Virus record (IMG/VR): IMGVR_UViG_3300025174_000013
Span: 1-64,000 of that record
Source: an uncultured virus (IMG/VR IMGVR_UViG_3300025174_000013)
Taxonomy: Duplodnaviria; Heunggongvirae; Uroviricota; Caudoviricetes
Direction: 5' to 3' (one strand)
DNA: 64,000 nt
Positions within the stretch are counted from its first letter, which is position 1. Each line of letters starts with the position of its first letter. The position numbers and the translations under genes are program-made. This document shows positions 17,973-62,676 of this stretch, piece after piece. The notes under the pieces were generated by a model, which did no database searches, was not told the origin of the DNA, and worked only from the letters and a program-made list of their open reading frames with translations.

Positions 17973-18059
17973 AAATAGGCACGAAAAATTACACTAAAAA
18001 CACCCCTAATATATACTTATTAAATGCTTATAAAGGAATTATGCTTAAATTTAATTAGT

Positions 18060-19829
18060 ATGCCTACAAAGGTTAGAAAAGCAACAGAGGATGTTAGCGA
18101 TCAAATAGAGCCAACAGGAAAACTTCCAGCAAGCGGAGTACCAGATAATGGTGCAGACGGAACTGCTGGTGGTGCAAATTGTCCGGATGGTCAAATTTGG
18201 AACGCACATACTCGAAAATGTGAAAAATCTGACTTAGGTGACGCAAGTAAGCGTTCAATACCTGAACCAGTAGCAAAAGCTTCATCTGCAACTGGAGAGG
18301 CTGAAACAGTAGACGGGATCGATGTTGATCTTGTTGAAGGATCAGAACTTCCAGATGACAATGAGAAAGGTGTAATAACCGATTTGATTACAGGACAAGA
18401 CGGTAGCGAACCAGCAGTAGATCCAACTAAATTAACTGGATCAAATGCTGACAAAACTAGCGAGGCTCGAAGAAACGGAACTTATGCATATAAAATTGCA
18501 AAAGCCGAAGCTTTGAGAAAACTAGAACAAGCCGAAATGCGAGTACGTGCTAAAGAATTACTAGCTAAAGAAGCTGATTTGGATGCACGAATTAGACAAG
18601 CAAAAGAGTCTTCAAAACCAAGAGCATTAGTAAACACTCCACAAGGAGTCTATGCAAATGGTTCTAAGACCAGTGCTGTCGAGGCAGAAATATCAAAACC
18701 CTCTGCATGGTTCAGAGCGGTTCAAAGAGAAGAGAATGTAAGTCCAGCATTTATCTGGCACATTAACAAGGAGAAAATCTATGAGAATTACGGTAAGCAA
18801 TTCTACAAGAAATTTGATGCCAACGGCAATGAGTTAAAATTCCCAGTTCCAAAAACAGAAGTGGGTAAGACTTATGGCGGAGAAGCAGTAACAATTTCAG
18901 TAGCAGGACCAGCTGACGGAGACTTTATGAGAATCATGTCAGAACAAGTTCTAGTATTACCTAGTGGAAAAGTAGTAACTCCAATTCGTCAATTCACAGA
19001 GACAAAAGTTTTGCCTCCGGGAACACGAGAAGCATTCTTCTACGACTTTGGACCAGTAACTTTCAGCGATATCGTTGAAGGAGACACTGATCCGGCTGTA
19101 GCAGTTCCATTATCTTCACCAATCATAAGAAGTGCTGGAACAGAGACAGATCCAAGAGGTACAAGGATAGATATCGGTTATCAACAAACTGAGGAAAGTC
19201 CGATTGATATTATTGCTTCAGCAAACCGTTCATTTGCACTTGAGAGCATAAATGATGAATCAGTAGAAGTTTTGACTCGAGCTTACAACCTCGATGCAGG
19301 TTCTTCAGGTTCAGCAACTGTTCGAAAGGCAAAAGGTGGTGGTACAAAAGCTGGTAGATGGGTCGATGGTAATACAGGAACTCAAATAGTAGCTGATGCC
19401 GGTGGTTTAGGAGTTTTAACCTACAGAGGATTACTTTCTGCAAAGGGAGTAATTCAAGATGAAGGTTTAGACGATTCAAACTTAATCACATACACTAGCG
19501 GTAAAGGAATTCGTGACTTAACATTAGATCCAGATCTGGATTCATACATTGGATTCTCTAGACCTGCAATAATTACAGAAGCAACTGTAGAAAGAATCGC
19601 TGGAACAAATCTAGTGAGATCATCTGCAATAGCTCCAACAACTTTCGTTGGTGGAAAAAGATCTGTAATGTTTATTCCAAATGTAGCATTTGGTTTAGTT
19701 TCAGGAAGAGACTTAACAATGGAAGCTCAGCGAAGGAACGAGAGACAGTTGATTCATTTGACTGGAACTCAGAAAATCTCTGCAGTAGTTAAGAACGTAG
19801 AAGCAACAGTAAGATTGTCACACCTATAA
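18060..19829 (+). CDS. Major capsid protein (HK97-like) with N-terminal scaffold/propeptide
   Basis: Follows the protease; acidic and coiled-coil N-terminus; capsid-like C-terminus (IERIAG-type, AFGLVSGRDLTMEAQR). Start moved to ATG 18060, about 33 nt after TATA; strong oligo-T follows. Confidence 0.75.
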   Translation: MPTKVRKATEDVSDQIEPTGKLPASGVPDNGADGTAGGANCPDGQIWNAHTRKCEKSDLGDASKRSIPEPVAKASSATGEAETVDGIDVDLVEGSELPDDNEKGVITDLITGQDGSEPAVDPTKLTGSNADKTSEARRNGTYAYKIAKAEALRKLEQAEMRVRAKELLAKEADLDARIRQAKESSKPRALVNTPQGVYANGSKTSAVEAEISKPSAWFRAVQREENVSPAFIWHINKEKIYENYGKQFYKKFDANGNELKFPVPKTEVGKTYGGEAVTISVAGPADGDFMRIMSEQVLVLPSGKVVTPIRQFTETKVLPPGTREAFFYDFGPVTFSDIVEGDTDPAVAVPLSSPIIRSAGTETDPRGTRIDIGYQQTEESPIDIIASANRSFALESINDESVEVLTRAYNLDAGSSGSATVRKAKGGGTKAGRWVDGNTGTQIVADAGGLGVLTYRGLLSAKGVIQDEGLDDSNLITYTSGKGIRDLTLDPDLDSYIGFSRPAIITEATVERIAGTNLVRSSAIAPTTFVGGKRSVMFIPNVAFGLVSGRDLTMEAQRRNERQLIHLTGTQKISAVVKNVEATVRLSHL

Positions 19830-34144: not shown

Positions 34145-34401
34145 ATGTAAAAACAACAATAAAACTTGGTGACAAGATTGATACATTTGATGATGCCAAT
34201 TCTTCATTTGGATCAAATGAACGTAATCTAGAACAGTTAGCAAAGTTTAAAGCATACATGAATGTAATGATAATGGCAATAGAGGACAAAGACCCAGAAA
34301 TGAAAAACAAAAGAATAGAAGTGATTATGGAATTTGAAGATGATGGGTTTTATCTTGTATTAGGAAGAAAACCAAGAGAGGTAACTGAATTTGGCACCTA
34401 G
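34141..34401 (+). CDS. Hypothetical protein
   Basis: 86 aa, overlaps both neighbours. Confidence 0.55.
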   Translation: MNVKTTIKLGDKIDTFDDANSSFGSNERNLEQLAKFKAYMNVMIMAIEDKDPEMKNKRIEVIMEFEDDGFYLVLGRKPREVTEFGT

Positions 34402-35590
34402 AAAAAAAGAAGAAATAGAACAAAGCTTAAAGGAAGTTGATGAAGCACTTAGCTTTAATTTGGCAGATATAGAAGGAATTGGACCTGTTAAATTAAAGAA
34501 ATTACAAGAAGCAGGAATATTAGATGCAACTGATTTAATAATAAGAGGACCCAAAGAATTAGGCGTATTACTTGATATGGATTCTAGTGATACAACAAAA
34601 ATGATAGAAGATGCACGAACATACTTGCGTGATAAAGGAGTTGTAGCAAAAGCAGTATTTACAGGAAGAGAATTTTATAATTATATGACATCAACAAGAT
34701 ATACATTAAGTAGTGGAGTAAATGGATTTGATGAAATGATGAGTGGTGGATTTGAAAGTAGTGCTATAACTGAACTATATGGAGAGTTTGGAGCTGGAAA
34801 AACTCAGTTTTGCTTTATGGCAACCATTATGGCACAACTTCCTTACAAGAGAAAATGTTTTAAATGTCATGAGGTATTTGAGGATCAAAAAATAGAAAGA
34901 TGTCCAACATGTGATGTAAAAACATTAACAGTTGGCGGGTTATCTGAAATAGGAAAGCCTTGTCGTGTTATTTATGTTGATACTGAAGGCACGTTTAGAC
35001 CTGATAGGATAGAACAACTCATATATGAACGCGGTTTGGTTCAAACAAAAGAACAAACTAAAATGGAAGAAAAAAGAAAAGATCCAAAACAACCACTTAA
35101 TGACGAGGAACGCGAAAAAGCTATGAAGTTTTTTGATAATATAATATTGATTAAAGTTGCAAATGCTGGACATCAGCTTTTAGTTGGTCAAGAATTAGGT
35201 TCATATATAAATCAAGAAGGGCAACCTCCAGTAAGACTTTTGATAATAGATTCTATTACAGCAACATTTAGGCTTGATTATTTTGGAAGAGGAGAAATAG
35301 GTGAAAGACAAGAGAAACTAAAGAGACACATAAAGCATATATCACGACTTTGTGAAACATACAATATAGTTGGTATCGTAACAAACCAAGTATTACAATC
35401 ACCTACTGGTTTTGGCGATCCAATAAAGGCATCAGGTGGAACAGTATTATCACACACATCTACGCATAGGATATATCTAAAGAAAAGTGGTAAAAAGGTA
35501 GTAGCTATCATAATAGATTCACCAAATCACGCAAAATCTGAAGCCATATTAGAACTTACTAATAAAGGAGTCGAAGACGCGAGTGCATAA
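34391..35590 (+). CDS. radA: RadA recombinase with a zinc-ribbon insertion
   Basis: HhH (IEGIGP), TELYGEFGAGKTQ, YVDTEGTFRPDRI, LLIIDS, GRGEIGERQ, VTNQV, GGTVLSHTSTHRIYL, DSP. Confidence 0.92.
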   Translation: MAPRKKEEIEQSLKEVDEALSFNLADIEGIGPVKLKKLQEAGILDATDLIIRGPKELGVLLDMDSSDTTKMIEDARTYLRDKGVVAKAVFTGREFYNYMTSTRYTLSSGVNGFDEMMSGGFESSAITELYGEFGAGKTQFCFMATIMAQLPYKRKCFKCHEVFEDQKIERCPTCDVKTLTVGGLSEIGKPCRVIYVDTEGTFRPDRIEQLIYERGLVQTKEQTKMEEKRKDPKQPLNDEEREKAMKFFDNIILIKVANAGHQLLVGQELGSYINQEGQPPVRLLIIDSITATFRLDYFGRGEIGERQEKLKRHIKHISRLCETYNIVGIVTNQVLQSPTGFGDPIKASGGTVLSHTSTHRIYLKKSGKKVVAIIIDSPNHAKSEAILELTNKGVEDASA

Positions 35591-40219: not shown

Positions 40220-42196
40220 GTGACTATAATGACAGTTTTAACGCTAGAAAAAGAATTATCTGAATATTTTCTTTCAACGAGATTAGAAGATATAGAATCG
40301 TTAACTCCTACAACAGTTTTCAAGATATCATTAAAGGACAATGAATTTTTAAATAATGTACTTGGCGAAACAAAAGGTAATTTTAGAAATGTGATTAGAA
40401 AAGCACTGATAAAGGCATATATTAAATGTAATTTTAATGATGAACAATTAAGTGAAATATCAAAAACCGTAAAGGAATATCAACGAATAGATTTATTTAT
40501 AGAAATACCAGTGGATATTACTATCCAAAACATCAGTGCAGAAGAACATGAAAGAAAAATTATTACTTTTGATTGTCAAGTTTCTTCAGTTGGACAAGAA
40601 TATGCTGAAGCAATTCAAGCACTTTTTATATGTAAAGGTTGTAGAGATGGACAAGAATATTCATTTGATATTTATGAAGAAAGACCGGAATGCCCTATAT
40701 GTGAAGAACGTTTAACAAGGATAGGAAATTCAGAATCAGAAACAATAAAAAGCATTTATGTAAAAGATGGAAAAGATATAACACTTGATATAGACGATAG
40801 AACATTTACAGTAAAGCTTCATCGTGAACAAACAAAACAATTTAAAATGAATGAATACATAAGAGTTACAGGAATGTTTAAATCAATACCAATGAAGAAT
40901 ACTGAAGTAAGTAAAATAATAATAGATGCAGTAAGCGTAACAAGCATAGAAAAACCAAAGGATAAATTACCAACACCCGAAAAAATAGAAGAATATAAAA
41001 AATTGGCTAAGGAAGGAAAATTAAGAGATTTACTGGTTAGAAGTTTTGCTTACTACATTACTGGCAATAGTGATCAAAAAATGGCTCTTTTATTGGCATT
41101 AGTTGGTGGAAATAAAACAGAAAATAAGCGTGGAAGAATTCATGTACTTATAGTCGGTCCGCCGGGTTCAGCCAAGTCTTCTACTTCAAAATTCATTAAA
41201 GCTGTATCTCGTAAAGGATGTTTAACAAGTATTCCATCTGCTAGTAAGTTTGGATTATTTTTTGGTGTTGTTGATACGCCAGATGGTAAAAAGGCATTAG
41301 GAGCAGGAGTTTTGGTAAAATATAATGGAGGACACGTATTTCTTGATGAATTTGAAAAAGGAGATAAAGTGATTTATGATATGATATTAACTGCAATGGA
41401 AAACGAAGAATATTCAAGACCGATCACAGGATATGGAAATCCAACCTTTCCATGTAGTACAACCATAATAGCTTGTACCAACCCTGTATTCGCAGAATGG
41501 AACGATAGATTATCTATACTGGAAAATCTAGGATTAACAGATAGGGTTGTTTCAAGATTTGACATAGTAATAAGATTATATGATATACCTGACGCACAAA
41601 AGGATTTTGAACTTGCCAAGTTTATATTAAACGATGCCAATGAAAAAAGACCTGAAAATACATTAAGCGAAGAAGAATTAAACGAGTTTTTAAATTATGC
41701 TCGATTATTAGAACCAACAATGTCAGAAAAAGCTATATATAAATTATCATTAGCATTTTCAGAGAGAGGCAAATATAAGAAAAATTCATTGATAGATAAT
41801 AGACGAATTGTTGTATCAAAAAGAAAGGCTGAGGCGTTTGCAAAACTGGATCTTCAAGAAGAGGTAACGGAAGAATATGCTGATATGGCTGTTGAATTCT
41901 ATAAAAAGGAATTAGCAACTTTTGGTCTTACGCTTGCAGAAGCAGATAAACTTAGTCAAACAGGTTTATTAAAAGATATGGGTAGAACATCAAAAGACGT
42001 AGCATTTAGAGTATTATATCATGAAATGAAGAAAATTGTTGAGGAAGGTTGTGTATTTGTAGATGATATAGTAACACAAATGGTATCTAGTGGCAAATGG
42101 AAATCGGCTGAAGAAGCAAGAATATATATTAGCCAACTAACCAAAAATGGAGTAATATCAGTACAACAACCAAGTAATGAGGTTACATTGGTTTAG
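40220..42196 (+). CDS. mcm: MCM replicative helicase
   Basis: Zn site CKGC/CPIC, IHVLIVGPPGSAKS, VFLDEFEK, AME, IIACTNP, SRFD; upstream ACAAACG-TTTATAA promoter. Confidence 0.9.
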   Translation: MTIMTVLTLEKELSEYFLSTRLEDIESLTPTTVFKISLKDNEFLNNVLGETKGNFRNVIRKALIKAYIKCNFNDEQLSEISKTVKEYQRIDLFIEIPVDITIQNISAEEHERKIITFDCQVSSVGQEYAEAIQALFICKGCRDGQEYSFDIYEERPECPICEERLTRIGNSESETIKSIYVKDGKDITLDIDDRTFTVKLHREQTKQFKMNEYIRVTGMFKSIPMKNTEVSKIIIDAVSVTSIEKPKDKLPTPEKIEEYKKLAKEGKLRDLLVRSFAYYITGNSDQKMALLLALVGGNKTENKRGRIHVLIVGPPGSAKSSTSKFIKAVSRKGCLTSIPSASKFGLFFGVVDTPDGKKALGAGVLVKYNGGHVFLDEFEKGDKVIYDMILTAMENEEYSRPITGYGNPTFPCSTTIIACTNPVFAEWNDRLSILENLGLTDRVVSRFDIVIRLYDIPDAQKDFELAKFILNDANEKRPENTLSEEELNEFLNYARLLEPTMSEKAIYKLSLAFSERGKYKKNSLIDNRRIVVSKRKAEAFAKLDLQEEVTEEYADMAVEFYKKELATFGLTLAEADKLSQTGLLKDMGRTSKDVAFRVLYHEMKKIVEEGCVFVDDIVTQMVSSGKWKSAEEARIYISQLTKNGVISVQQPSNEVTLV

Positions 42197-46035: not shown

Positions 46036-47658
46036 ATGCCTGACCTTTCATCTAGAGATATCAGCAATGATATGTCCTTAGCGACAGCAAGTGAAAGTGA
46101 AATTTGGAACAGTTTAAGTCCAGAAACAAGAGCTATAATTCTAGGTCGGGATATAGCAAATGAGGCAAACATTTCTAATAACACAAAAAATGTATACCAA
46201 GGAGATTTGAAAAGTAACTCATACGAAACTATGAGTTATTATTCACTTCCTCCCTCAGCACAATTCTATGTTTCTAATAGATTGCATGAAATGGGATACT
46301 TTAGTGATTCTTATGGAGCAAATGTATATGAAGTAGAGGGTGACAGTAGATACAAATGTAAAGATTGTGAAGAAACATTTACTGCAGAAGAAGATTTTAG
46401 AGTTCACAGAAAAGTGAATCATGACAATGAAGAAAGCGAAACAGAAAGTCGAGAGGCTTATTCTCGATCACTTTATATTGATCCAGACTTGACAAAAGAT
46501 AATTTAAAGTGGGCAAGACAAATATTAAGAGGAGAATCTGCAAGACAAACATTTCCACAAAATGATGCACCAACAGTAACAGAACCAAAACTTCCAAAAG
46601 GAAAGAAAGGATATGATGATAATCCAAATCATTACTTTTATGATAATAAATTATTTAAGAGAGGAACAAGAACACCATATGAACAGGAAGGAAGACCAGC
46701 TTCAGAAGCAAGTCTTTTAATTGAGTTAGAATCAGAAATTCTAGACAAATATGGATGGGAATCTACCAAGGATGTAGAAAAAGATCCTGCTAACAGAGAA
46801 ATATATACATCAGAAGTGGCACAAAAAGTTACTGCAAATGAATTACATCCAAGAACATTAAGAATTTTAGATCATGTTAATAAACCACTTTTATTTAAGA
46901 CATTGTTAAGACTTGGTGCAGTAGAAACACAGCCAGAAGAATGGAAAGAACAAGTAATAGATGAAAAACCAATACATCAAGATTATGATCCAGAACATCC
47001 ACATGAACACAATGACTTTGATACATATTTTAGTGACAAAGTAGCAGAAGAAGATATTTCAGAAGAAGAACACACAGGCAAACACACAGAGATGGCAGAT
47101 GCAATACAAAGAGAGAATCCAGATTATTCAAGGGATAGAGCAATGAAAATAGCAAATGCACAAATTAACAAATATGGATTAGAATCACATTCAAACAAGA
47201 AAGTGCCAGATTTACTTAAGGAGGTAGATATAAGTGTAATGGAAGTGGAAGCAGAAGAATATAATGCTGATGAGAAAGAAGATGTAAAAGCAACCGAAGC
47301 AAGAATATTATCATCTTATGTAGGAAGTAAAACTAAAGGCGGGGAATCACTCGCGGATATTATGGAAGGTGCATTAGATGTACCCGTAGAAAAAGAAACT
47401 GTTAATGAAGTAATTTATGACAGAAAACTTGATGGTTATCATGAGGATAAAATAGCAAGAGAACTATTTATTAATCACGGATTAGAATATGAAGACGCTA
47501 TAAGACAAATAAGAAGCGTTGAAGTTTCAGATGACGATAGAGTAGCAAAGACTTTATTTGGAAAAAGGTTATCTGAATGTAATAAAGCCGAGGTTGGTGA
47601 AATGAGACTGTACGCTGGTGAAGCCAAAAAGAATACTACGGGTGTAAGATATGATTGA
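46036..47658 (+). CDS. Acidic modular protein 1 (putative processed head cargo)
   Basis: Start moved to ATG 46036, 29 nt after CTTATAAA; C2H2 finger (CKDC...HRKVNH); many [AGS]-x-E borders. Confidence 0.65.
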   Translation: MPDLSSRDISNDMSLATASESEIWNSLSPETRAIILGRDIANEANISNNTKNVYQGDLKSNSYETMSYYSLPPSAQFYVSNRLHEMGYFSDSYGANVYEVEGDSRYKCKDCEETFTAEEDFRVHRKVNHDNEESETESREAYSRSLYIDPDLTKDNLKWARQILRGESARQTFPQNDAPTVTEPKLPKGKKGYDDNPNHYFYDNKLFKRGTRTPYEQEGRPASEASLLIELESEILDKYGWESTKDVEKDPANREIYTSEVAQKVTANELHPRTLRILDHVNKPLLFKTLLRLGAVETQPEEWKEQVIDEKPIHQDYDPEHPHEHNDFDTYFSDKVAEEDISEEEHTGKHTEMADAIQRENPDYSRDRAMKIANAQINKYGLESHSNKKVPDLLKEVDISVMEVEAEEYNADEKEDVKATEARILSSYVGSKTKGGESLADIMEGALDVPVEKETVNEVIYDRKLDGYHEDKIARELFINHGLEYEDAIRQIRSVEVSDDDRVAKTLFGKRLSECNKAEVGEMRLYAGEAKKNTTGVRYD

Positions 47659-50600
47659 TTGTGGAGTTTGTGGAAAAGGGTTTAATACTAACGAAGAATA
47701 TAAAAATCATGTAGAACAGGCTCATGAAGCAATGAATGATACTTATTCAGAAGCATTTTGTAAAGCAAATGAAGAAACCACAGCATGGGATTTACAAGTT
47801 TGTCGTAAATGTGGAAATTCAAGAGTTCTTCAAGAGGATACAGGTTATTGTGCCCAATGTTCAAAGAAATTAGAATCAAGGGAAGTCAACTGGAGAGATA
47901 TAGGAGATAAAAAAGTTATAGATAAGGGATCACATTATGAAACTGAAGATGGTACATTAGTTGATTGGTCATCATATGATGCAACAGACGCACAAAAATA
48001 CTTAAGTAAAAAAGTTAATGAATCAAAAGCAAATGAAGATGATATGGATGATTTGCAATATAAACAACAGTTTGGACATGATTGGCGTGATGATAAAGCA
48101 AAATCAAAGAAAAAAGAAAAAGAAGGCGATGAAGGAGGGGCAAGAGGATTATCAAGTCAAGAACAACCATTAAAAAAAGTAGATTCATTATCAGAATCAT
48201 GGGGAGTATTAGAAAAAGAAAAGAAAGCACAATTATTTGAATCATTAGGAATTAATCAAGGTAGTGCATATACATTAGCAGATTTAGATTGGTTTAACTT
48301 ATCTCCACAACTTAAAGCCGATGCTTCAGAAGCATATGCAAAAGAAGAAGATGAGTTAGTAATAGATAATGATGAAGATTTGTTTGCTTTACATAAAGGA
48401 CTTATGGATAAACCAATAAAAGATGATAAGGAAAAAGAGGTTAATGAAGCCTATGCAGATATTTATAACATAGAGAAAAATCATTTATCGCCTGATTATA
48501 AAAAAAAAGCTATAGAATGTAGTAGATGTAACGAGAAGTTTTATAATAGTAAAGAAAGAGACGTTCATTTTAATGAATTCCATGCAACTGAACAAGAATA
48601 TAATTTACCTGAAGAATGTCCTTTTTGTAAGGAATTAATTAAGGAGCCAGAAACATTGGATTATCACATGCAACAAGAGCACGGAGCCCATGTACCAAGT
48701 CAATATACTCAAACAGGAATTCAAGGAGCAATGGCAGATACAGATTTTGATTCTTTAGGTTCTGATTTTTATTCAGAAGCATTTGATAGTGATTGGGCTT
48801 GTCCTAGATGTGGTAATAAAAAAGTAACTATAAAGAAAGATGAAAATGGAAATCCTATTGGTAGAGCATGTCCTAAATGTGGTTTGGGAAATGAAGTAAA
48901 AGCAACTGAATCAAAGTGGAGAGTTAATACAATTACACATGGTAAGGTTAACGTTAATTTGGGTAAAGATGCAAATGAAGAAGATGCATTAAACGCAGTT
49001 AAAAGAATGTATTTTGATGATGGATATATAGATGATAGTGATATTTTATCTGCAAACAAACTTAGTGATGAAGCAATTAATTTTGGTAAACATCAAACAT
49101 GTTCGATATGTGGACAAGATTTTGAATTGAGTGGTGTAAGTGCTGATAGTGGATGGGGTTCACATGACACAGAAGGAAACAGAATAGTGCGTAATGACAG
49201 ATTAAATCAAATTGCACATTATGACTGCGTAGAAGCAAGTGGTGAAGATATGAGTCCTTTAGGTGAATCTTATGCAAATGAAGAACATACACATAATTGG
49301 GAACAAGTAGGAGATGCTGATGGAGACAGAACATTTGAATGTACTGGATGTCCAGCGAAATTATGGGCTCATCCCGGTCAAAGTAAAGAAGAAGGAGATA
49401 TTTATTATGGATATCTTGGTCAAGAATCAAAAACAAATGAAGCAAATTGGACAGATTTCGGACATGTAAGTGATCCTAATTTTAGAACTAATTGTACTGA
49501 TGGAGAACCACACGTTCCAAAAGAAGACAAACAAAATGATATATGTATTAAATGTGGTAAAAATATACGAGAAACAGGAGAAGGTTCAGGTTATTGGTTT
49601 ACAGATGAAGATAACAGAAATTGGAATAGAACATATAATGAATCAAAAGCAACAGAATGGAGTACTGGAATATCAAGTAAAGATCCAACTGCAATAACAC
49701 AATTAGAAGCAAAATTAGCAAGACTTGAAGAAGAAAAAACAGAGATAAAAGCAAGACCAATAGTACCACGAGATTGGAGTTTTTCGCCAGAAGATAGTAG
49801 GGGATTTGAATTAACAAATATAAATGCAAACATTAGAAGTGTAAAACAAAGAATAGAAGATTTAAAAAACAGAGCAGGAGAAGCAAAAATTCCAAGCGGT
49901 GATCTTTATCAACATGGGCAAAAAGTTGGAACTATTACAGATTATAATCCAAAAAAACATGAAGGGTATGTAACACTTGATGGTATTGGTATAAAAGAAT
50001 TTGGAGCAATGACATCAGATTATGAAGTAAGAGTTAATGGTGAAAGAATTCCTAACAAATGGGATGGTAAACACGATTATAATTTAGATTTGTTTGGAGA
50101 AGCATATAACGATGATATGGTATTACGAGCACTTGATACTCCAGACGCAAATAATGAAGGTTTACCAATACATGCACAAGGAGTATATTGGAGATGTGAT
50201 TTGTGTGATTATAAAACATATTTCATGGGAACTTTTGATAATGCAGATCCAATAAAACCACATTTAAAAGAAGAACATGGTATAGGTGAATCATATGCAA
50301 AAGAAGACGGAGGTTATGCAAATTTTGGTGATAAACCAAAAGAAGAATCATGGTCAGTATTAACAGTAGGATCAGATTTATGGTATTTTAATTCAGAACA
50401 AGAAGCAAGAGATTATGTCAAAAACTTTCCAAAAGGAACATATCAAATTAACCGTCCACGAGAAGGAAGAGAATCATATGCGAAAGAAATAAGCGGACAG
50501 TTTACGAGACAATGCCCTCATTGTGAAAAATTAATTAATGTTGATAAATTAAATGATCATATCAAAAAAGAACATAATGAAATAACTGAGGGTTTAGAAG

Positions 50601-50824
50601 ATCCAGAATATAGAGTAAAATTATTTAAAGATATTGAGAAAAAACAAAAAGAAGATAAAGAAGAATCAAACGAAGACGATGATCATCCAAAAGGATGGGA
50701 TAAAAGAAAGCCTGATATAGGTGGATATGATCCAGAATTAGATGTTGATGATCCTCCAAGAAGACGGGATAAAAGACAACCTGAAATTGGAGGTTATGAT
50801 CCAGAATTAGATTATGATGGTTGA
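47651..50824 (+). CDS. Acidic modular polyprotein 2: mini-domains joined by ESxAxE linkers
   Basis: 1057 aa; about ten Cys/His zinc-finger-like modules; linkers ESKANE, EAYAKE, EVKATE, ESYANE, ESKTNE, ESKATE and 2x ESYAKE. Confidence 0.75.
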   Translation: MIDCGVCGKGFNTNEEYKNHVEQAHEAMNDTYSEAFCKANEETTAWDLQVCRKCGNSRVLQEDTGYCAQCSKKLESREVNWRDIGDKKVIDKGSHYETEDGTLVDWSSYDATDAQKYLSKKVNESKANEDDMDDLQYKQQFGHDWRDDKAKSKKKEKEGDEGGARGLSSQEQPLKKVDSLSESWGVLEKEKKAQLFESLGINQGSAYTLADLDWFNLSPQLKADASEAYAKEEDELVIDNDEDLFALHKGLMDKPIKDDKEKEVNEAYADIYNIEKNHLSPDYKKKAIECSRCNEKFYNSKERDVHFNEFHATEQEYNLPEECPFCKELIKEPETLDYHMQQEHGAHVPSQYTQTGIQGAMADTDFDSLGSDFYSEAFDSDWACPRCGNKKVTIKKDENGNPIGRACPKCGLGNEVKATESKWRVNTITHGKVNVNLGKDANEEDALNAVKRMYFDDGYIDDSDILSANKLSDEAINFGKHQTCSICGQDFELSGVSADSGWGSHDTEGNRIVRNDRLNQIAHYDCVEASGEDMSPLGESYANEEHTHNWEQVGDADGDRTFECTGCPAKLWAHPGQSKEEGDIYYGYLGQESKTNEANWTDFGHVSDPNFRTNCTDGEPHVPKEDKQNDICIKCGKNIRETGEGSGYWFTDEDNRNWNRTYNESKATEWSTGISSKDPTAITQLEAKLARLEEEKTEIKARPIVPRDWSFSPEDSRGFELTNINANIRSVKQRIEDLKNRAGEAKIPSGDLYQHGQKVGTITDYNPKKHEGYVTLDGIGIKEFGAMTSDYEVRVNGERIPNKWDGKHDYNLDLFGEAYNDDMVLRALDTPDANNEGLPIHAQGVYWRCDLCDYKTYFMGTFDNADPIKPHLKEEHGIGESYAKEDGGYANFGDKPKEESWSVLTVGSDLWYFNSEQEARDYVKNFPKGTYQINRPREGRESYAKEISGQFTRQCPHCEKLINVDKLNDHIKKEHNEITEGLEDPEYRVKLFKDIEKKQKEDKEESNEDDDHPKGWDKRKPDIGGYDPELDVDDPPRRRDKRQPEIGGYDPELDYDG
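50699..50821 (+). repeat. 69-bp coding direct repeat (2 copies)
   Basis: DKRKPDIGGYDPELDVDD / DKRQPEIGGYDPELDYDG. Confidence 0.8.
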
Positions 50825-50827
50825 TTA

Positions 50828-53800
50828 ATGATGAAAGAATATGAATCAGACGAAGGAAGATGGGATTATACGGAAGGCGACAAGCCTGAATCACAAACAA
50901 CTGATTATGATCCAGAAGAATTAGAAAGAGCAAGAATAAGAATGAAAGCAGAAAAGAAAAGAATAGAAGATCCAGAAATAGGTGTATTCGATTGGGAACT
51001 TGAAAAATCTGGAGAACCATTTCAAAAGGGACAAGAAATGGATATAAGCCACAAAAAATGTCCACATTGTAATTTTGAAACTTCATTTAAACCTGATGAC
51101 CTTTGGCAAGAAACAGATGCTGATACTGAATTAGATACACATATTAGAAATAAACATGGAATTAATGAGTCAACATCAACAGAAAGTGTAACAAGTTGGT
51201 GGGGTAGTGCAAGTCCAAAGAACTTAGAGTTCAGAAGCAAGGCATTAGATAAAATTAATGCAAATACAGATTTACAAGATAAAGAGTTTTGGGAATTACC
51301 TGAAGATATACAAGATAATATTTATGAACTTTATACAAGTGGATATAGTAATGAAGCAACTGAGGAACGAATTAATACAGATACATACCACTATGATTAT
51401 AGTGATTATTGGAAAAAAGGAGATTCTTATGTAAGAGCAGGATTAGCAATGGGATCTGGACTTTCAACAGATACAGCTAATAAAGAATGGGATGAACTTA
51501 CGAAAGAAGAACAAATAAAGATTTTAGAATCGGGTTATGTAACGTCTTATGAATCAGTGGCAGAAGAAGATGGACAATGGGTAGACTTTGATGATAATCA
51601 CAGAGTAAGACAACCAACAATTAGTGATATTCCAGATATAGCAAAAAGCATGTTTCAAGGTTATAGTCAAAAATTAAAGAAAAAATTTGGTGATGAAGAT
51701 ATAGACGGTCATACTCCAGAGGAAATGATAAAAAGAGAACATGAATTAATGGGAGAACAACCAAAGGAAGAAGAAAAGAAAATACATCAACAACTTGAGA
51801 AAGAATTTGGTGATGAAGAATCAACTGTAAGTGTATCAGGCCCTCCCGCGGGAACACAACCCCCAGCAAATATATGGGATGATTTAGATAAAGCAGAAGA
51901 AGACTTTGTAGAACAAGAACATCCACGGGAACAAACAGGAAAATTTACAACTAAAGGTGGAGGAAGTTCAAAAGCAGGACAACCAAAAGAAAAAAGCAAG
52001 AAAGAATTTACACTTAAAGATTATGAAAGAAATGAAGGTAGAAATGCTCATACATTAAATGCATTAAACTTGGTAAAAAAATATGGTACGCCAGAAGAAA
52101 TTAAAGAAATGGAAGAAATAAAAGATAGACATGATAAAAGTGAACACGGTATCAATCATGATGATTATAAAAGAAGATATGATATATCACAAAAATATTA
52201 TGATAAATTAGTTGAAGATGAAACAGGGGAAAAACCATTTTGGGCTAAAGATGAACCAAAAACAGAAAAACCAAAAGAAGAAAAGAGGTTTACACTTAAA
52301 CAATATGAAAGAAACGAAGATGTAAATAACCATGGTAAAAATGCACAGTTATTGGTAAAACAATATGGTACTCCAGAAGAACTTGAAGAAATAAATGCTA
52401 TATTAAAAAGAAATCCAAATGGATATAGTGGTGTTGATGGACATGCTGATTATCAAAGAAGACATGAAATATCAAACAAATATTATGATAAGTTAGTGGA
52501 AGATGAAACTAAATCTAATGAATCAAATGCAAATGAATTTGAGCCAGAAAGACAAGGAAGAAAAGTTAAGATTAACAAGGGAACTTATGCGGGACAAACA
52601 GGGAGAGTAGGAGCAATACCATTAATAGATGATAGTTCATTTTTTGTAAGAGTAGATGGAGTTCACAATGAATATGAAGATGGGATACAAGTAAATGTAA
52701 ACGATGTCACATTCTTGGGGGGAGAAGTAAAATATGATTTGTATGAAAAAGTTGAAGAGGTCAAAATACCAAATCAAGATATAGAACTTCATAAATATGT
52801 ATGGGAATCAATGTACGGATATGGTAGTGCAACAGGAAGAATGTCACCAGTTGAAGATTGGAACCAAGGAGGAAGTTTTGAACATCCATACAGTGAAATA
52901 TTTCGTGAATTTAGAGGATTAAAATGGAGTGAATTACCCAAAGATATACAAGATGCATGGAAAGCAGAAAGGGATTATGCACCATATGATAGTGAATCAC
53001 ATGTAAAATCTGATATAAAAGGTTGGTTAGATAAAACTTTTCCTACAGAATATGAAGAACCACAAAAAGGACTTGATTCAGAAACAAAAGCCGATGAAGA
53101 TTGGTATGATACAGATGATTCAAATTACAAGCCAGAAGTATTAAAATATAAAATAGTAACGTCATTAGGAAATGACTGGGGACTTCAAACTAATAGTAAA
53201 GCAGAAGCACAAAGAGCAGTTGATGAATGGAATAATGATTATGAGAAATCAGTTAGTGGATCATTACCATATACATTAAAAATAGTTGATAATGAATCAG
53301 TAGATGATCCAAAAGATATTAAACTTTTAGATAGATTATTGGATAATGAATTAGAAGAGGAAAAAGAAGGTGAAGATGAAGAAGAAGATATTGCAATATT
53401 ACTACAATTATTAGCCCCTGATGAAAAAGCCAATGAAGTAGATCCAAATTGTCCAGAATGTGGAGGAGATGGATATATAGACGTACCAAGTAGATGGTCT
53501 TCTGATGGTTTAAGACAAGAACCATGTCCTAGATGTGGGGGAGAAGATGATTATCATGATACATATGATGAATCATACAAAAAAAAAGCTACTGAATTAG
53601 ATTCTATTTATAAACAATTCACAGGTCAAATAAATGCACCAACAGGTAAAGGTATAATGGATAGTGTGAGGGGATATAGTGAACCTGAAGCAGATGGACA
53701 AGATTTGACTGGTACTACAGCAAATGAGGAAATAATAGAAAAAACTCCACCTAAAATTAATTATCAATATTATAAACAATATCCATTTGGTAGAATACAA

Positions 53801-54595
53801 AAAGGATTTTTTGGGGAAGTAGATAGAAAATGGTGGGAAACTGCATCATATGAAGAGAAAGCAAAAGAATTAAGTGATATAGGATTTGGAATGGGTGCTG
53901 ATATAGGCGAGAAAGGAAATCCATTAGCAAGAAGAAGTTGGGACGACCTACCAAATGAAGCAAGACAACAATGGGGTTATTTTGGTAATGAAGTGGAGCT
54001 GTCAACAATGTACCAAGCAAGAGATTGGTGGGACAAAAAATATCCAGATAGACTATGGAAGGATATGCATATAGACGGAAGACAAAGAGCAATCATGGCA
54101 TTTTTAAGAGATCCAGACACTGAGTTAAAATCAGAGGAAGGAGGTCAAGGTAGTGGAAGAAAACCATATGCAAGTAAAGACCCAGCAAGAAAAGACAGAG
54201 CACATGTAGGTTGGAAGAATCAAGGAATAGATAAATATACAGATTTGGCAATGAAAGATTATTTAACGGGAAAAAAATCAACTCCAGAAGAATATGAATA
54301 TGCTGGATATCATGCCTCAAAAGAAGTAGAGGATCAAAAATGTGAAGGTTGTGGTAGAGAAGAAGATTATTTAAATGATGATAATTTATGCGAAGATTGC
54401 GAAAGAGAAGCAGGGATAGATCGCGAAGAATCAAAACGTGATGCTTATGAAGGTGGAAAAGGAAGTGGTAAAAAAGGACATCAACAATGGATGAGATCAT
54501 TGGAAGAAGATCCATCTTATGGTGAATGTAAAAATTGTAAAGTTATTACCGAAAAAGTTAATAATAAATGCCAAATGTGTGGTAGAAAGTACTAA
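50828..54595 (+). CDS. Acidic modular polyprotein 3
   Basis: 1255 aa; zinc fingers, a KOW motif (GRKVKINKGTYAGQTGRV), a duplicated 75 aa domain, HPRxxxGKF and GGxGSG motifs, ESNANE / ETKADE / EKANE / KKATE linkers. Confidence 0.75.
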   Translation: MMKEYESDEGRWDYTEGDKPESQTTDYDPEELERARIRMKAEKKRIEDPEIGVFDWELEKSGEPFQKGQEMDISHKKCPHCNFETSFKPDDLWQETDADTELDTHIRNKHGINESTSTESVTSWWGSASPKNLEFRSKALDKINANTDLQDKEFWELPEDIQDNIYELYTSGYSNEATEERINTDTYHYDYSDYWKKGDSYVRAGLAMGSGLSTDTANKEWDELTKEEQIKILESGYVTSYESVAEEDGQWVDFDDNHRVRQPTISDIPDIAKSMFQGYSQKLKKKFGDEDIDGHTPEEMIKREHELMGEQPKEEEKKIHQQLEKEFGDEESTVSVSGPPAGTQPPANIWDDLDKAEEDFVEQEHPREQTGKFTTKGGGSSKAGQPKEKSKKEFTLKDYERNEGRNAHTLNALNLVKKYGTPEEIKEMEEIKDRHDKSEHGINHDDYKRRYDISQKYYDKLVEDETGEKPFWAKDEPKTEKPKEEKRFTLKQYERNEDVNNHGKNAQLLVKQYGTPEELEEINAILKRNPNGYSGVDGHADYQRRHEISNKYYDKLVEDETKSNESNANEFEPERQGRKVKINKGTYAGQTGRVGAIPLIDDSSFFVRVDGVHNEYEDGIQVNVNDVTFLGGEVKYDLYEKVEEVKIPNQDIELHKYVWESMYGYGSATGRMSPVEDWNQGGSFEHPYSEIFREFRGLKWSELPKDIQDAWKAERDYAPYDSESHVKSDIKGWLDKTFPTEYEEPQKGLDSETKADEDWYDTDDSNYKPEVLKYKIVTSLGNDWGLQTNSKAEAQRAVDEWNNDYEKSVSGSLPYTLKIVDNESVDDPKDIKLLDRLLDNELEEEKEGEDEEEDIAILLQLLAPDEKANEVDPNCPECGGDGYIDVPSRWSSDGLRQEPCPRCGGEDDYHDTYDESYKKKATELDSIYKQFTGQINAPTGKGIMDSVRGYSEPEADGQDLTGTTANEEIIEKTPPKINYQYYKQYPFGRIQKGFFGEVDRKWWETASYEEKAKELSDIGFGMGADIGEKGNPLARRSWDDLPNEARQQWGYFGNEVELSTMYQARDWWDKKYPDRLWKDMHIDGRQRAIMAFLRDPDTELKSEEGGQGSGRKPYASKDPARKDRAHVGWKNQGIDKYTDLAMKDYLTGKKSTPEEYEYAGYHASKEVEDQKCEGCGREEDYLNDDNLCEDCEREAGIDREESKRDAYEGGKGSGKKGHQQWMRSLEEDPSYGECKNCKVITEKVNNKCQMCGRKY

Positions 54596-55172: not shown

Positions 55173-56003
55173 ATGCAAAAACTGGCATCACTATTAGCGA
55201 TTTTGTTAATCGTGGGATTATTAGGTACAAATTTCGCATATGGGGATTATACAGAATACATGAAAATAAGAATAGAATCTGATAAACCAAATGTTTGTGT
55301 ATTTGAAGCCGAAAACCCACAAGTAGATTTTGCAAAAAGAGGACTTTATAAAAAAACCGTAAAATGGATAAGTGAATGGTCTAAACAACTGGAAAAAGAA
55401 GCCAATGGAGGTAATTGGGATTTTACATATGAATTCATACATAATTCTACTCACTTTGATAAAAAACCAACAGATTTCCCTCAATGTAATGTATTGATAG
55501 TATTTGATGCCGAGAATTTAAATCCAATAGAAAGTGATTTAGGTATGGCACAAGGATACACATCTTTTGATTATAGAAGTTCAACTCATAAATTTTCATT
55601 TATAGATATTTTCACATTTGCACCAACAAATGAAATAAATTTAGGTCAATTAGATTTTACCAATATGACAAAAAATGCAGATGGCTCATATGAAGTAAAA
55701 TTAGGTAAAGAAATGTTTACATCAGAACCAATTTCTGATGAAGCAATTAGAATAGTTATTCAACATGAATTTGCTCATGCAATGGGATTAGGTCATTGGA
55801 GTGATACAACCAAAAATGATTTTAAATCGATCATGGTTCCACAATTTGATGTACGAGCAAAAGGATTAGAAAATATAAAAATAACACTTGATGATATCAA
55901 GGCATTAATAGAACTTTATGGTGAAGATGGATTTAGTAAATATTATCAAGTTCTAATTCCAGATTTAGCATATGGATGGGAAAAATCAGTAATGAAAAAT
56001 TAG
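55173..56003 (+). CDS. Secreted or membrane-anchored matrixin (M10-like) metalloprotease
   Basis: Hydrophobic signal peptide; HEFAHAMGLGH; Met-turn SIM; DIKALIELYG. Confidence 0.85.
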   Translation: MQKLASLLAILLIVGLLGTNFAYGDYTEYMKIRIESDKPNVCVFEAENPQVDFAKRGLYKKTVKWISEWSKQLEKEANGGNWDFTYEFIHNSTHFDKKPTDFPQCNVLIVFDAENLNPIESDLGMAQGYTSFDYRSSTHKFSFIDIFTFAPTNEINLGQLDFTNMTKNADGSYEVKLGKEMFTSEPISDEAIRIVIQHEFAHAMGLGHWSDTTKNDFKSIMVPQFDVRAKGLENIKITLDDIKALIELYGEDGFSKYYQVLIPDLAYGWEKSVMKN

Positions 56004-58223: not shown

Positions 58224-59207
58224 ATGATTCAAGGATTTGTAAAGCTTTACAGGGAAAAAGGACTAAATGTAATACCACTTAAACCAAAGTCTAAATTTCC
58301 AGATGAAACAAACATGCCAATAAATCCACAAACTGGTAAGCGTGGTTGGAAAATATATCAAACTGAAAAGTGTAATATAGAAATTAAAGAAGGGCAAAAT
58401 GGAGCAGTGCTTTGTGGTGAATCATCGGGTAATTTAGTGGTTATAGACCTTGATGATCGTGAGTTATCAAAAGTTTTTGATGACTGGGAAAAAAGAAAAA
58501 ATGAAACATTAATAGTTGAAACTGGAAAAGGATATCACGTATGTGTTAAACCAAAAGGAAAGTTGCCAGAAAAAAGCTTAAGATTAATAAATGATAAAGG
58601 TCAACGTATAGACATTCAATCACAAGGAACTTACGTATTAATTCCGGGTTCAATTAATCCAGAGACTGGTAAAGAATATAAAATAATTTCAAGTACATTG
58701 GATATACAGGATATAGACTTGGATGGTTTCATTAATAGTTTATCGAATCATGGGTTCAATCCAGAACGTATAAAGAAAGGAGTTGTTGAAATTTTAAAAG
58801 GTGTAAAAGAAGGAGAAAGAGATTATAGTGTATACACGCTTGGGGTAGCGATGAGACATAGTTTTGGTTTAAAAGATGCTGGATTATTATCATATCTAAA
58901 TCATTTTAATCAAACATCGGTATTTCCCCCACTGCCAGATGTAGTGATAAAACAAAAAGTTCAAAGTGTGATGAACGCCGATGTTGAGAAAATTAGATTT
59001 AAAGAATTTTTAGAGAAATTTGATTTAAAAGAAGTAAAATTGAAATATGACGATAATTTTTGGAAAGATGTAGAAGATTTACGTATACACAATAAACTTC
59101 AATCTAAAGATTTAAAACTTGAATGTGTAATTTGTAAAAAATTGGTAGCATATAATCCACAAGATACTACACATAGGGGGCACATCATTACAATTATATA
59201 CAAGTAA
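58224..59207 (+). CDS. Bifunctional primase-polymerase with PriCT-like domain
   Basis: GLNVIPL, NGAVLCG, LVVIDLD, VETGKGYH, IDIQ...YVLIPGS, GVKEGERD...PPL. Confidence 0.88.
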   Translation: MIQGFVKLYREKGLNVIPLKPKSKFPDETNMPINPQTGKRGWKIYQTEKCNIEIKEGQNGAVLCGESSGNLVVIDLDDRELSKVFDDWEKRKNETLIVETGKGYHVCVKPKGKLPEKSLRLINDKGQRIDIQSQGTYVLIPGSINPETGKEYKIISSTLDIQDIDLDGFINSLSNHGFNPERIKKGVVEILKGVKEGERDYSVYTLGVAMRHSFGLKDAGLLSYLNHFNQTSVFPPLPDVVIKQKVQSVMNADVEKIRFKEFLEKFDLKEVKLKYDDNFWKDVEDLRIHNKLQSKDLKLECVICKKLVAYNPQDTTHRGHIITIIYK

Positions 59208-62217: not shown

Positions 62218-62676
62218 ATGCCAGCTAATCAGATAATTCATGATATATGGATAGGTGATTTAGAGGACGCTCTAGTATGGGATGGTAACTTATTATGTGT
62301 TTTAGAAACTAGACCTGAAAGACTACCAGTAGATGCATTACATATTCCTATTCTGGCATTAAGATTTGAAAAAACATTCATGAAAGATAAAGATGGAAAT
62401 GATACCAATTACCAAATATCTGGATTTGTTGATAGAGCATTACCAGTACAATTAGACGCAGTTGCACATGTTATTCAAAACCATATAGACGCAAAAGAAA
62501 GGCTAATGGTTCATTGTGGGGCTGGGATGGAACGAAGTCCGTTAGCATTAACATGGTACTTACACACTAGAATGGGTCTTACATTAGAAGATGCATTTGC
62601 GTTAGTAAAGACAAAAAGACCACAAGCACAGAACAGATTAGAATGGTTAAATATCAGCAATCCATTAAACAAGTAA
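62218..62676 (+). CDS. Dual-specificity protein phosphatase
   Basis: IWIGD, MVHCGAGMERS (HCx5R), AFALVKTKRP. Confidence 0.88.
   Translation: MPANQIIHDIWIGDLEDALVWDGNLLCVLETRPERLPVDALHIPILALRFEKTFMKDKDGNDTNYQISGFVDRALPVQLDAVAHVIQNHIDAKERLMVHCGAGMERSPLALTWYLHTRMGLTLEDAFALVKTKRPQAQNRLEWLNISNPLNK

Follow-up and report, generated by a model that had tools for sequence, protein, structure and literature searches.

A conserved hexapeptide punctuates candidate protease-processed polyproteins of an uncultivated archaeal-type tailed virus

The 64,000-nucleotide stretch analysed here (the window) is the start of the single-contig, 75,144-bp genome of an uncultured virus of the Caudoviricetes (IMG/VR record IMGVR_UViG_3300025174_000013), which is a tailed, archaeal-type, uncultivated virus. 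The genome has a G+C content of ~33%, and nearly every gene lies on the plus strand. Three consecutive open reading frames (ORFs) in the window, A, B and C, encode proteins that are acidic, as an initial annotation of the sequence had said (isoelectric point 4.7-4.8, Asp plus Glu 20.5-22.4%). That annotation described all three as strings of mini-domains joined by a recurring hexapeptide, here called the mark, and proposed that a protease encoded from position 15855 cuts them into peptides that are packaged and injected. The genes and their marks are as follows.

46036-47658, plus strand: ORF A, an acidic multi-module protein of 540 residues read from the ATG at 46036 (the longest ORF opens at TTG 45976), with one variant mark
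47281-47298, plus strand: DVKATE, a variant mark and the only one in A
47651-50824, plus strand: ORF B, 1057 residues, the main punctuated polyprotein, with eight strict marks
48020-48037, plus strand: ESKANE mark, B residue 124, where the model of B has low confidence
48329-48346, plus strand: EAYAKE mark, B residue 227, at the C-terminus of a helix predicted with confidence
48575-48592, plus strand: EFHATE variant, B residue 309, overlapping the last His of a C2H2-type finger (EVHATE in homologues)
48893-48910, plus strand: EVKATE mark, B residue 415, where model confidence falls from 88-89 to below 50
49265-49282, plus strand: ESYANE mark, B residue 539
49424-49441, plus strand: ESKTNE mark, B residue 592; the next module, 598-664, also stands alone in P0319, P0323, P0331 and P0340
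49640-49657, plus strand: ESKATE mark, B residue 664, in a short low-confidence segment (662-673)
50288-50305, plus strand: ESYAKE mark, B residue 880
50471-50488, plus strand: ESYAKE mark, B residue 941, in a low-confidence segment (937-949) between two confident blocks
50828-54595, plus strand: ORF C, 1255 residues, sparsely punctuated and in the same frame as B
51551-51568, plus strand: ESVAEE variant, C residue 242
52520-52537, plus strand: ESNANE mark, C residue 565
53081-53098, plus strand: ETKADE variant, C residue 752

All 11 hexapeptides that the initial annotation had named are found where it had placed them. The strict form of the mark, E[SATV][KYN][AT][NKTD]E, occurs eight times in B, twice in C and in none of the other ORFs when the 59 plus-strand ORFs of at least 80 residues in the window are scanned. 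Composition-matched shuffles of B hold a mean of 0.009 strict copies and none of 5000 reaches eight, while shuffles of C hold a mean of 0.019 and again none of 5000 reaches its two copies; the enrichment over shuffled acidic sequence that the annotation asked for is present in both proteins. In A, it is the minimal A-x-E that is in excess, with 12 copies against a shuffle mean of 4.5 (1 of 5000 shuffles). When a position matrix built from homologues only is scanned over the whole 75-kb proteome, the top 11 places all fall in B and C, with EFHATE (B 309) and ESVAEE (C 242) newly found, and the scaffold part of the capsid protein P0036 holds the best match elsewhere, AKELLAKEAD (residue 176). 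Punctuation is strong in B, sparse in C and hardly present in A, so that the description of mark-joined strings holds for B (eight copies) and C (two to three) but scarcely for A, which has no strict copy. Cuts after every mark of B would give 10 pieces with computed lengths of 53-216 residues. The junction of B and C, at 50822-50830 (GGT TGA TTA ATG ATG), keeps the two genes in the same frame with TGA and one codon between them, and readthrough of this one stop would yield a polyprotein of ~2,300 residues.

The mark is conserved well beyond this genome. Searching 5.8 billion proteins with B retrieved 29 homologues, each with partial, mosaic coverage, and all 29 hold between 1 and 11 matches to a loose pattern. 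The form E[SAV]xAxE is present in 27 of them, which together hold 128 copies where shuffles average 4.3 and, in 200 trials, never exceed 11. A logo of 155 sites, gathered with the pattern E[SAVT]x[AT]xE, which fixes the final Glu by definition, reads [G/I/A/S]-[G/N/T]-E-S(100)/V/A-K(56)/Y(51)-A(141)-K/T/N-E-[D/A/E]-[D/E], where four positions are fixed or nearly so and the flanks are unconserved. Such a pattern is that of a short linear motif and not of a folded repeat. The residue at P3 before the final Glu is small, being Ala in 141 of the 155 sites as a matter of sequence pattern. Self-cleavage at an Asn or Gly preceding the mark was considered and rejected, as the -1 position is not conserved (G in 35, N in 20 and T in 17 of 155).

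In an all-against-all BLAST comparison of the 29 homologues, shared modules are rearranged from protein to protein, and the comparison of module order among relatives that the annotation had suggested shows that the order differs. Among 2079 distinct alignment ends, 407 fall within eight residues of a mark, against 202 +/- 20 when marks are placed at random (maximum 267 in 1000 trials), an excess that arises partly because the mark itself aligns. The claim that the hexapeptide falls between modules is therefore upheld in the form of a conserved short linear motif bounding independently evolving modules. The relative P0279 is 95% identical to B residues 1-131 and carries a 29-residue cassette inserted directly after ESKANE, the cassette itself ending in EEKANE. 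The A homologues P0022 and P0026 align from A residue 21, and the N-terminal C2H2 module is conserved in B-type proteins. C residues 331-566 (51820-52540) are a tandem duplication of a ~100-residue module, FTLK[DQ]YERNE...YYDKLVEDET, of which both copies align to P0009 residues 12-151 and only the second is followed by a mark (ESNANE). An exhaustive phmmer search over 1.84 billion representatives gave 107 matches, which include single-module, Met-initiated ORFs that stand alone:

B residues 376-415: P0338
B residues 477-528: P0366
B residues 598-664: P0319, P0323, P0331 and P0340
B residues 672-745: P0330, P0352 and P0353
B residues 741-820: P0292, P0299, P0310 and P0311
B residues 900-935: P0359

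Short representatives (150 residues or fewer, n=21) hold one mark in 1,834 residues, and long ones (more than 300 residues, n=49) hold 107 in 35,977. The rarity of marks in the short stand-alone ORFs indicates that the modules work alone and that the mark is present only where modules are fused. Within the viral_contigs collection, related loci of B come from the same virus only, and no related loci of the distant polyproteins P0032 and P0286 were found. A scan of the same collection for ESKANE-coding DNA returned 110 stretches, and only 4 of the 80 loci examined (L030, L046, L055 and L076) have another mark within the ORF concerned; most of these matches are probably due to chance, many lying in no long ORF.

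Since module shuffling breaks at the mark, the conserved element could be DNA and not peptide, that is, an 18-nucleotide sequence (GAA TCA AAA GCA AAT GAA and close variants) serving as a homology joint for cassette exchange, with the hexapeptide as a by-product. The P0279 cassette, inserted right after ESKANE, is the kind of event this explanation calls for, and codon use lends it some substance. Among marks in the protease extensions of metagenome relatives (see below), Ser is encoded by TCA in 45 of 52 cases against a background of 42%, and Ala by GCA in 62 of 67 against 78%, counts that include four near-duplicate locus pairs. In the window marks, Ser is TCA in seven of eight and TCT in one of eight, with no AGY codon against an AGY background of 42%; Ala and Glu codons there, however, match background. 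The pattern of variation is also that of a protein, in which the S/A/V, K/Y/H/R and K/T/N/S positions vary freely while E, A and E are fixed, and AGT is used for Ser in two of the 52 metagenome cases. The TCA bias can be explained by common descent together with S/A/T/V interchange via xCA and GTA codons. We regard an explanation in DNA alone as very improbable, although this leaves room for the DNA of the mark to double as a recombination joint.

B, C and, marginally, A may be described as strings of small, independently folding modules, with zinc fingers or ribbons, helical units and an SH3-like unit among them. The domain labels of the initial annotation fared unevenly: the C2H2 fingers are weak in the window proteins (E 0.0024-0.04) and significant in homologues (P0009, E 3e-11), while the KOW motif is not significant (E 0.43). 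No peptidase family is detected in A, B or C at E values up to 5. Three B homologues match the LPD29 profile with E values of 9.4e-6 to 5.4e-4, which is below the Pfam cut-off (26.7 bits against 27). The structure model of B has a mean predicted local distance difference test score (pLDDT) of 53.6, with 58% of residues below 50, and Foldseek of the whole model finds nothing meaningful (best E 0.31). Eight of the nine B marks lie in segments with pLDDT below 50, and those at 415, 664 and 941 lie within, or open, low-confidence segments that border on confident domains. As support for disordered linkers between folded units this is marginal, and two marks abut folded elements.

A conserved linker need not be cut. 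The TGEKP linker of eukaryotic zinc-finger arrays is short, strictly conserved and uncleaved, and the mark could likewise be a cap or spacer between modules, or else a repeated docking peptide for capsid targeting or partner binding. The two marks that abut folded elements in the B model would suit such a role, as would the lack of the full motif in the major capsid protein. Against this, the modules separated by the mark are of unrelated kinds and are spaced at 53-216 residues, stand-alone modules do without the mark, and in several relatives the mark exactly precedes the protease domain, the classic place for self-processing. An uncut mark is on these grounds distinctly unlikely. A separate candidate for docking is found at the end of B, where residues 1025-1057 (50723-50821) hold a repeated tail motif, R-[K/Q]-P-x-I-G-G-Y-D-P-E-L-D. 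The tail ...IGGYDPELDYDG is the exact C-terminus of B, P0011, P0014, P0334 and P0365, so that the conserved sequence R-[K/Q]-P-x-I-G-G-Y-D-P-E-L-D-Y-D-G closes five proteins, and the motif is internal in the homologues P0010, P0016 and P0019. This tail motif could be a docking peptide.

The candidate enzyme for the marks, and the principal substrate expected of it, are encoded in the head region.

15855-17972, plus strand: P0035, a protease-bearing protein of 705 residues; the protease domain comes after an extended N-terminal region that is acidic and of low complexity and holds a zinc ribbon and three ENPFEKK repeats
17262-17972, plus strand: P0035 residues 470-705, a prohead protease domain and the candidate for the enzyme that cuts at the marks
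18024-19829, plus strand: P0036, a fusion of scaffold (delta) and major capsid protein, matched by tblastn to the 'protease/major capsid protein' of Pro-Nvie1 (E 5e-40)

Sequence searches with the protease domain alone find no Pfam family and no relative in the PDB, and its identity is drawn from its fold, its ESM Atlas neighbours and an alignment to the provirus Pro-Nvie1. The domain model, built on 35 sequences, has a pLDDT of 65.8, and its leading Foldseek matches are herpesvirus proteases (best E 7e-3). VIA-align, which is independent of Foldseek, places T4 gp21 first (5jbl, Z 6.9 over 112 aligned residues), ahead of the proteases of varicella-zoster virus (Z 5.9) and human cytomegalovirus. 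The ESM Atlas neighbours include Peptidase_S78, Peptidase_S77 and Peptidase_S78_2 clusters. The domain is 30% identical (pairwise E 2e-21) to the first 149 residues of the Pro-Nvie1 'protease/major capsid protein', conserved ...NH... and ...SLG... stretches included, and His72, Ser138 and His172 (domain numbering) are invariant across the 35 aligned sequences. With moderate confidence, we take the C-terminal domain of ORF 15855-17972 to be a prohead protease of the assemblin/T4 gp21 type, and accept to that degree the protease proposed by the initial annotation. A complex prediction of this domain with B residues 922-962 scored 0.29 (mark 0.32) and gives no verdict either way. The three ENPFEKK repeats (P0035 residues ~445-468; 17190-17260) immediately precede the protease domain, and after the third comes K-K-S-L-E-C, at a place occupied in relatives by ESKASE-SCGCK.

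The relatives of P0035 connect the mark with the protease. Homologues of the protease domain span 395-1226 residues owing to variable extensions, and a census of 120 proteins with the domain, the query included, places 52 strict marks N-terminal of it (48,933 residues), none inside it (24,583 residues) and 10 C-terminal of it (17,516 residues). In at least nine distinct sequences, ESKA[SN]E or a variant (ESYTKE, EVKAME) abuts the conserved start of the domain, mostly 'SCGCK', and degenerate versions occupy the same place in many other relatives. To judge from sequence, this is a typical position for a self-processing site. The modules travel with the marks: by BLAST, protease-bearing proteins contain homologues of A 356-455, of B 800-888 and of C 57-120, 353-470 and 487-571, with A 356-455 matching segments of the protease-bearing P0206 and P0230. 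Across 79 metagenome loci around the protease gene, with the window's near-identical locus L123 excluded, protease ORFs (57,442 residues) hold 52 canonical marks and unclassified ORFs (104,193 residues) four, with no occurrence in the capsid protein (25,352 residues), the RelA/SpoT-bearing head protein (34,943 residues) or other structural proteins. Prohead proteases of the assemblin/gp21 fold act inside the procapsid, as in HK97, T4 and the herpesviruses. As relatives carry modules and marks on the protease polypeptide itself, which must sit in the procapsid to act, the procapsid is where processing would most likely occur.

An alignment of 116 capsid protein sequences shows three near-invariant A-x-E sites close to the junction of delta and body, at P0036 residues 181-183, 193-195 and 218-220. 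These read A181-x-E183; A193-[R/K]-E195 followed by S/T-A/S-K-P; and S217-A218-V-E220-A-E222 followed by V/I-S-K-P. Such sites weakly suggest a protease that requires A-x-E, since A, E and K abound in the coiled coil of this region. Shuffles predict 9.9 copies of E[SAV]xAxE in P0036 and 119 homologues, where none is observed, and a second count gave 1 against 3.9. This depletion could reflect avoidance of the mark under exposure to the protease; the sequences are closely related and the test is weak, and it is not counted here.

The wider genome, annotated with Pfam and PHROGs, places the head-tail module at 564-33125 and an archaeal-type replication set further downstream, with Rad51/RadA at 34391-35590, an MCM helicase at 40220-42196 and a PrimPol at 58224-59207; a Cas4-like nuclease, methyltransferases and NAMPT are also annotated. 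The Nitrososphaera provirus Pro-Nvie1 shares the gene order of the window for portal, Rel/Spo-like protein and protease/capsid. The counterpart here, at 11221-15408, is a protein of 1395 residues with a C-terminal RelA/SpoT domain (PF04607, E 1.3e-18) directly upstream of the protease and capsid genes, and relatives of this protein (L171, L200) hold a segment homologous to C residues 300-420. At 62218-62676, an ORF of 152 residues encodes a dual-specificity phosphatase domain (PF00782, E 4e-11). Apart from the protease domain of the protein at 15855, which Pfam does not identify, the only protease family that Pfam finds in the genome is the following:

55173-56003, plus strand: P0033, a matrixin-like HExxH protein (PF00413, E 4e-7; Pfam) with an N-terminal hydrophobic signal/membrane segment

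This gene is two genes downstream of the polyprotein genes, and it brings with it the question of whether the mark is cut in the cytoplasm by another protease, be it a host enzyme, the HExxH protein or free protease precursor, with products that would serve as early or middle proteins in the infected cell and not be packaged. The location of A, B and C in a block of DNA metabolism genes agrees with this, as does the fact that stand-alone module homologues are ordinary small ORFs; that no capsid-targeting signal is recognised and that the capsid protein lacks the full motif point the same way. However, the signal/membrane segment of the HExxH protein probably places it outside the cytoplasm and makes it an unlikely processor, the mark and modules in the protease polypeptides of relatives tie them to the procapsid, and the A-x-E ending of the mark suits prohead proteases. 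We consider processing in the cytoplasm unlikely.

On balance, we lean modestly towards B and C, and marginally A, being protease-processed polyproteins and probably capsid cargo, with cleavage, packaging and injection all inferred. In the proposed mechanism, the mark at module junctions, [G/N/T]-E-[S/A/V]-[K/Y]-A-[K/T/N]-E-[D/E], would be the recognition site of the prohead protease of ORF 15855-17972, and, by the A-x-E rule, the cut would most likely fall after its last Glu. B would thereby yield ~10 mini-proteins and C several, most likely within the procapsid, and these would travel in the capsid as cargo and be delivered together with the DNA. These parts are not equally secure. That the mark is a proteolytic site of some kind is quite probable; that it is the viral prohead protease that cuts it is somewhat favoured; and that the products are packaged and delivered is plausible but falls short of probable. 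The N-terminal C2H2 module of B-type proteins and the C-terminal tail ...IGGYDPELDYDG are at most candidate capsid-targeting signals.

Several observations weigh against this reading. Genes for methyltransferases, nuclease and primase surround A, B and C, which lie ~28 kb away from the head genes, and no capsid-targeting signal was recognised in any of the three. A has no strict copy of the mark, only the DVKATE variant, and P0035 itself lacks a canonical mark, having only EVIAVE. The full mark is found in none of the 116 aligned capsid proteins, though the capsid protein is the one expected substrate of a prohead protease; what this family shares with the mark is the minimal A-x-E only, a sequence frequent in coiled coils. 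For the protease, the model is of moderate confidence (pLDDT 65.8) and the fold matches score modestly (Foldseek E 7e-3; Z 6.9). Given the poor model of B, the location of eight of nine marks at low confidence is only marginal evidence, and EAYAKE (227), which ends a confident helix, and EFHATE (309), which overlaps a zinc ligand, are not obvious free linkers. The codons of the mark are also more uniform than background, as the preference for TCA at Ser shows, and a role at the DNA level therefore keeps some probability.

The known systems nearest to this one are polyvalent proteins and the prohead-processed ejection proteins of giant phages, both described below; polyproteins of eukaryotic viruses, cut by a viral protease at a short consensus, are a further parallel. 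African swine fever virus, for example, makes the polyproteins pp220 and pp62, which are cut by a viral protease at G-G-X. As in the present genes, one ORF gives many products, a short consensus marks each junction and the protease is encoded by the virus. The protease class and the consensus differ, the African swine fever virus products are structural core proteins in a fixed order, and the present modules are exchanged among genes and genomes and are also found as genes of their own. Zinc-finger arrays are made of tandem homologous fingers at a fixed short spacing, whereas the modules here are heterogeneous and the pieces run from 53 to 216 residues. The prohead proteases of T4, phiKZ, 201phi2-1 and SPN3US process packaged and ejected proteins, cutting at A-X-E in SPN3US, at S/A/G-X-E in phiKZ and after Glu in T4, often at several sites per protein (PMC5694885). 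Like these phages, the present virus encodes a protease that, with moderate scores, is of matching fold class, and its mark ends in A-x-E with a small residue at P3. In contrast to T4, phiKZ and SPN3US, the extended consensus is stricter here (E and S/A/V at P6 and P5) and the capsid protein lacks the full mark; the substrates of the four phages are trimmed or lose a propeptide, and none is described in the consulted portions of that article as a string of mini-proteins with a six-residue consensus (PMC5694885).

The polyvalent proteins of phages and conjugative elements are very large, mosaic, multi-module proteins (2-15 domains), for which co-delivery with DNA and sometimes proteolytic release have been proposed (Iyer et al. 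2017, PMC5512222). B resembles them in being a single polypeptide of many modules that are rearranged among homologues. It differs, as far as the consulted portions of that article describe them, in that the modules are mostly zinc-binding or helical units of ~40-120 residues with no enzymes, and in that the junctions bear one strict hexapeptide, the word 'linker' having 0 occurrences in that article (PMC5512222). Polyvalent proteins often embed an MPTase for self-processing (PMC5512222), whereas no peptidase, and so no embedded MPTase, is detected in A, B or C, and the virus here, unlike the systems described there, has archaeal-type replication genes. Polyvalent proteins typically hold conflict-effector domains such as nucleases, methylases, peptidases, ADP-ribosyltransferases and LPD domains; A, B and C gave weak zinc-finger matches only, and LPD29 lies just under the threshold in three homologues.

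A literature search of titles and abstract openings did not find hexapeptide-punctuated polyproteins of this kind in archaeal or bacterial tailed viruses, and no tailed virus of bacteria or archaea is known to make many small proteins as one punctuated polyprotein. Taken further, the evidence would allow a widespread marine family of archaeal-type tailed viruses to run a cassette system, in which an 18-nucleotide unit is both prohead protease site and cassette-swap joint; cassettes would be swapped among polyprotein genes, the protease gene and free-standing small ORFs, and every virion would carry a library of ready-made zinc-finger effectors that is rapidly reshuffled. This broader scheme is doubtful at present. 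If the processing and delivery proposed here are true, they would represent a new strategy of gene expression and delivery for this virus realm, the E-S-x-A-x-E rule would predict where dozens of unknown mini-proteins of uncultivated marine archaeal viruses begin and end when mature, and the system would offer a natural modular route for loading foreign proteins into capsids.

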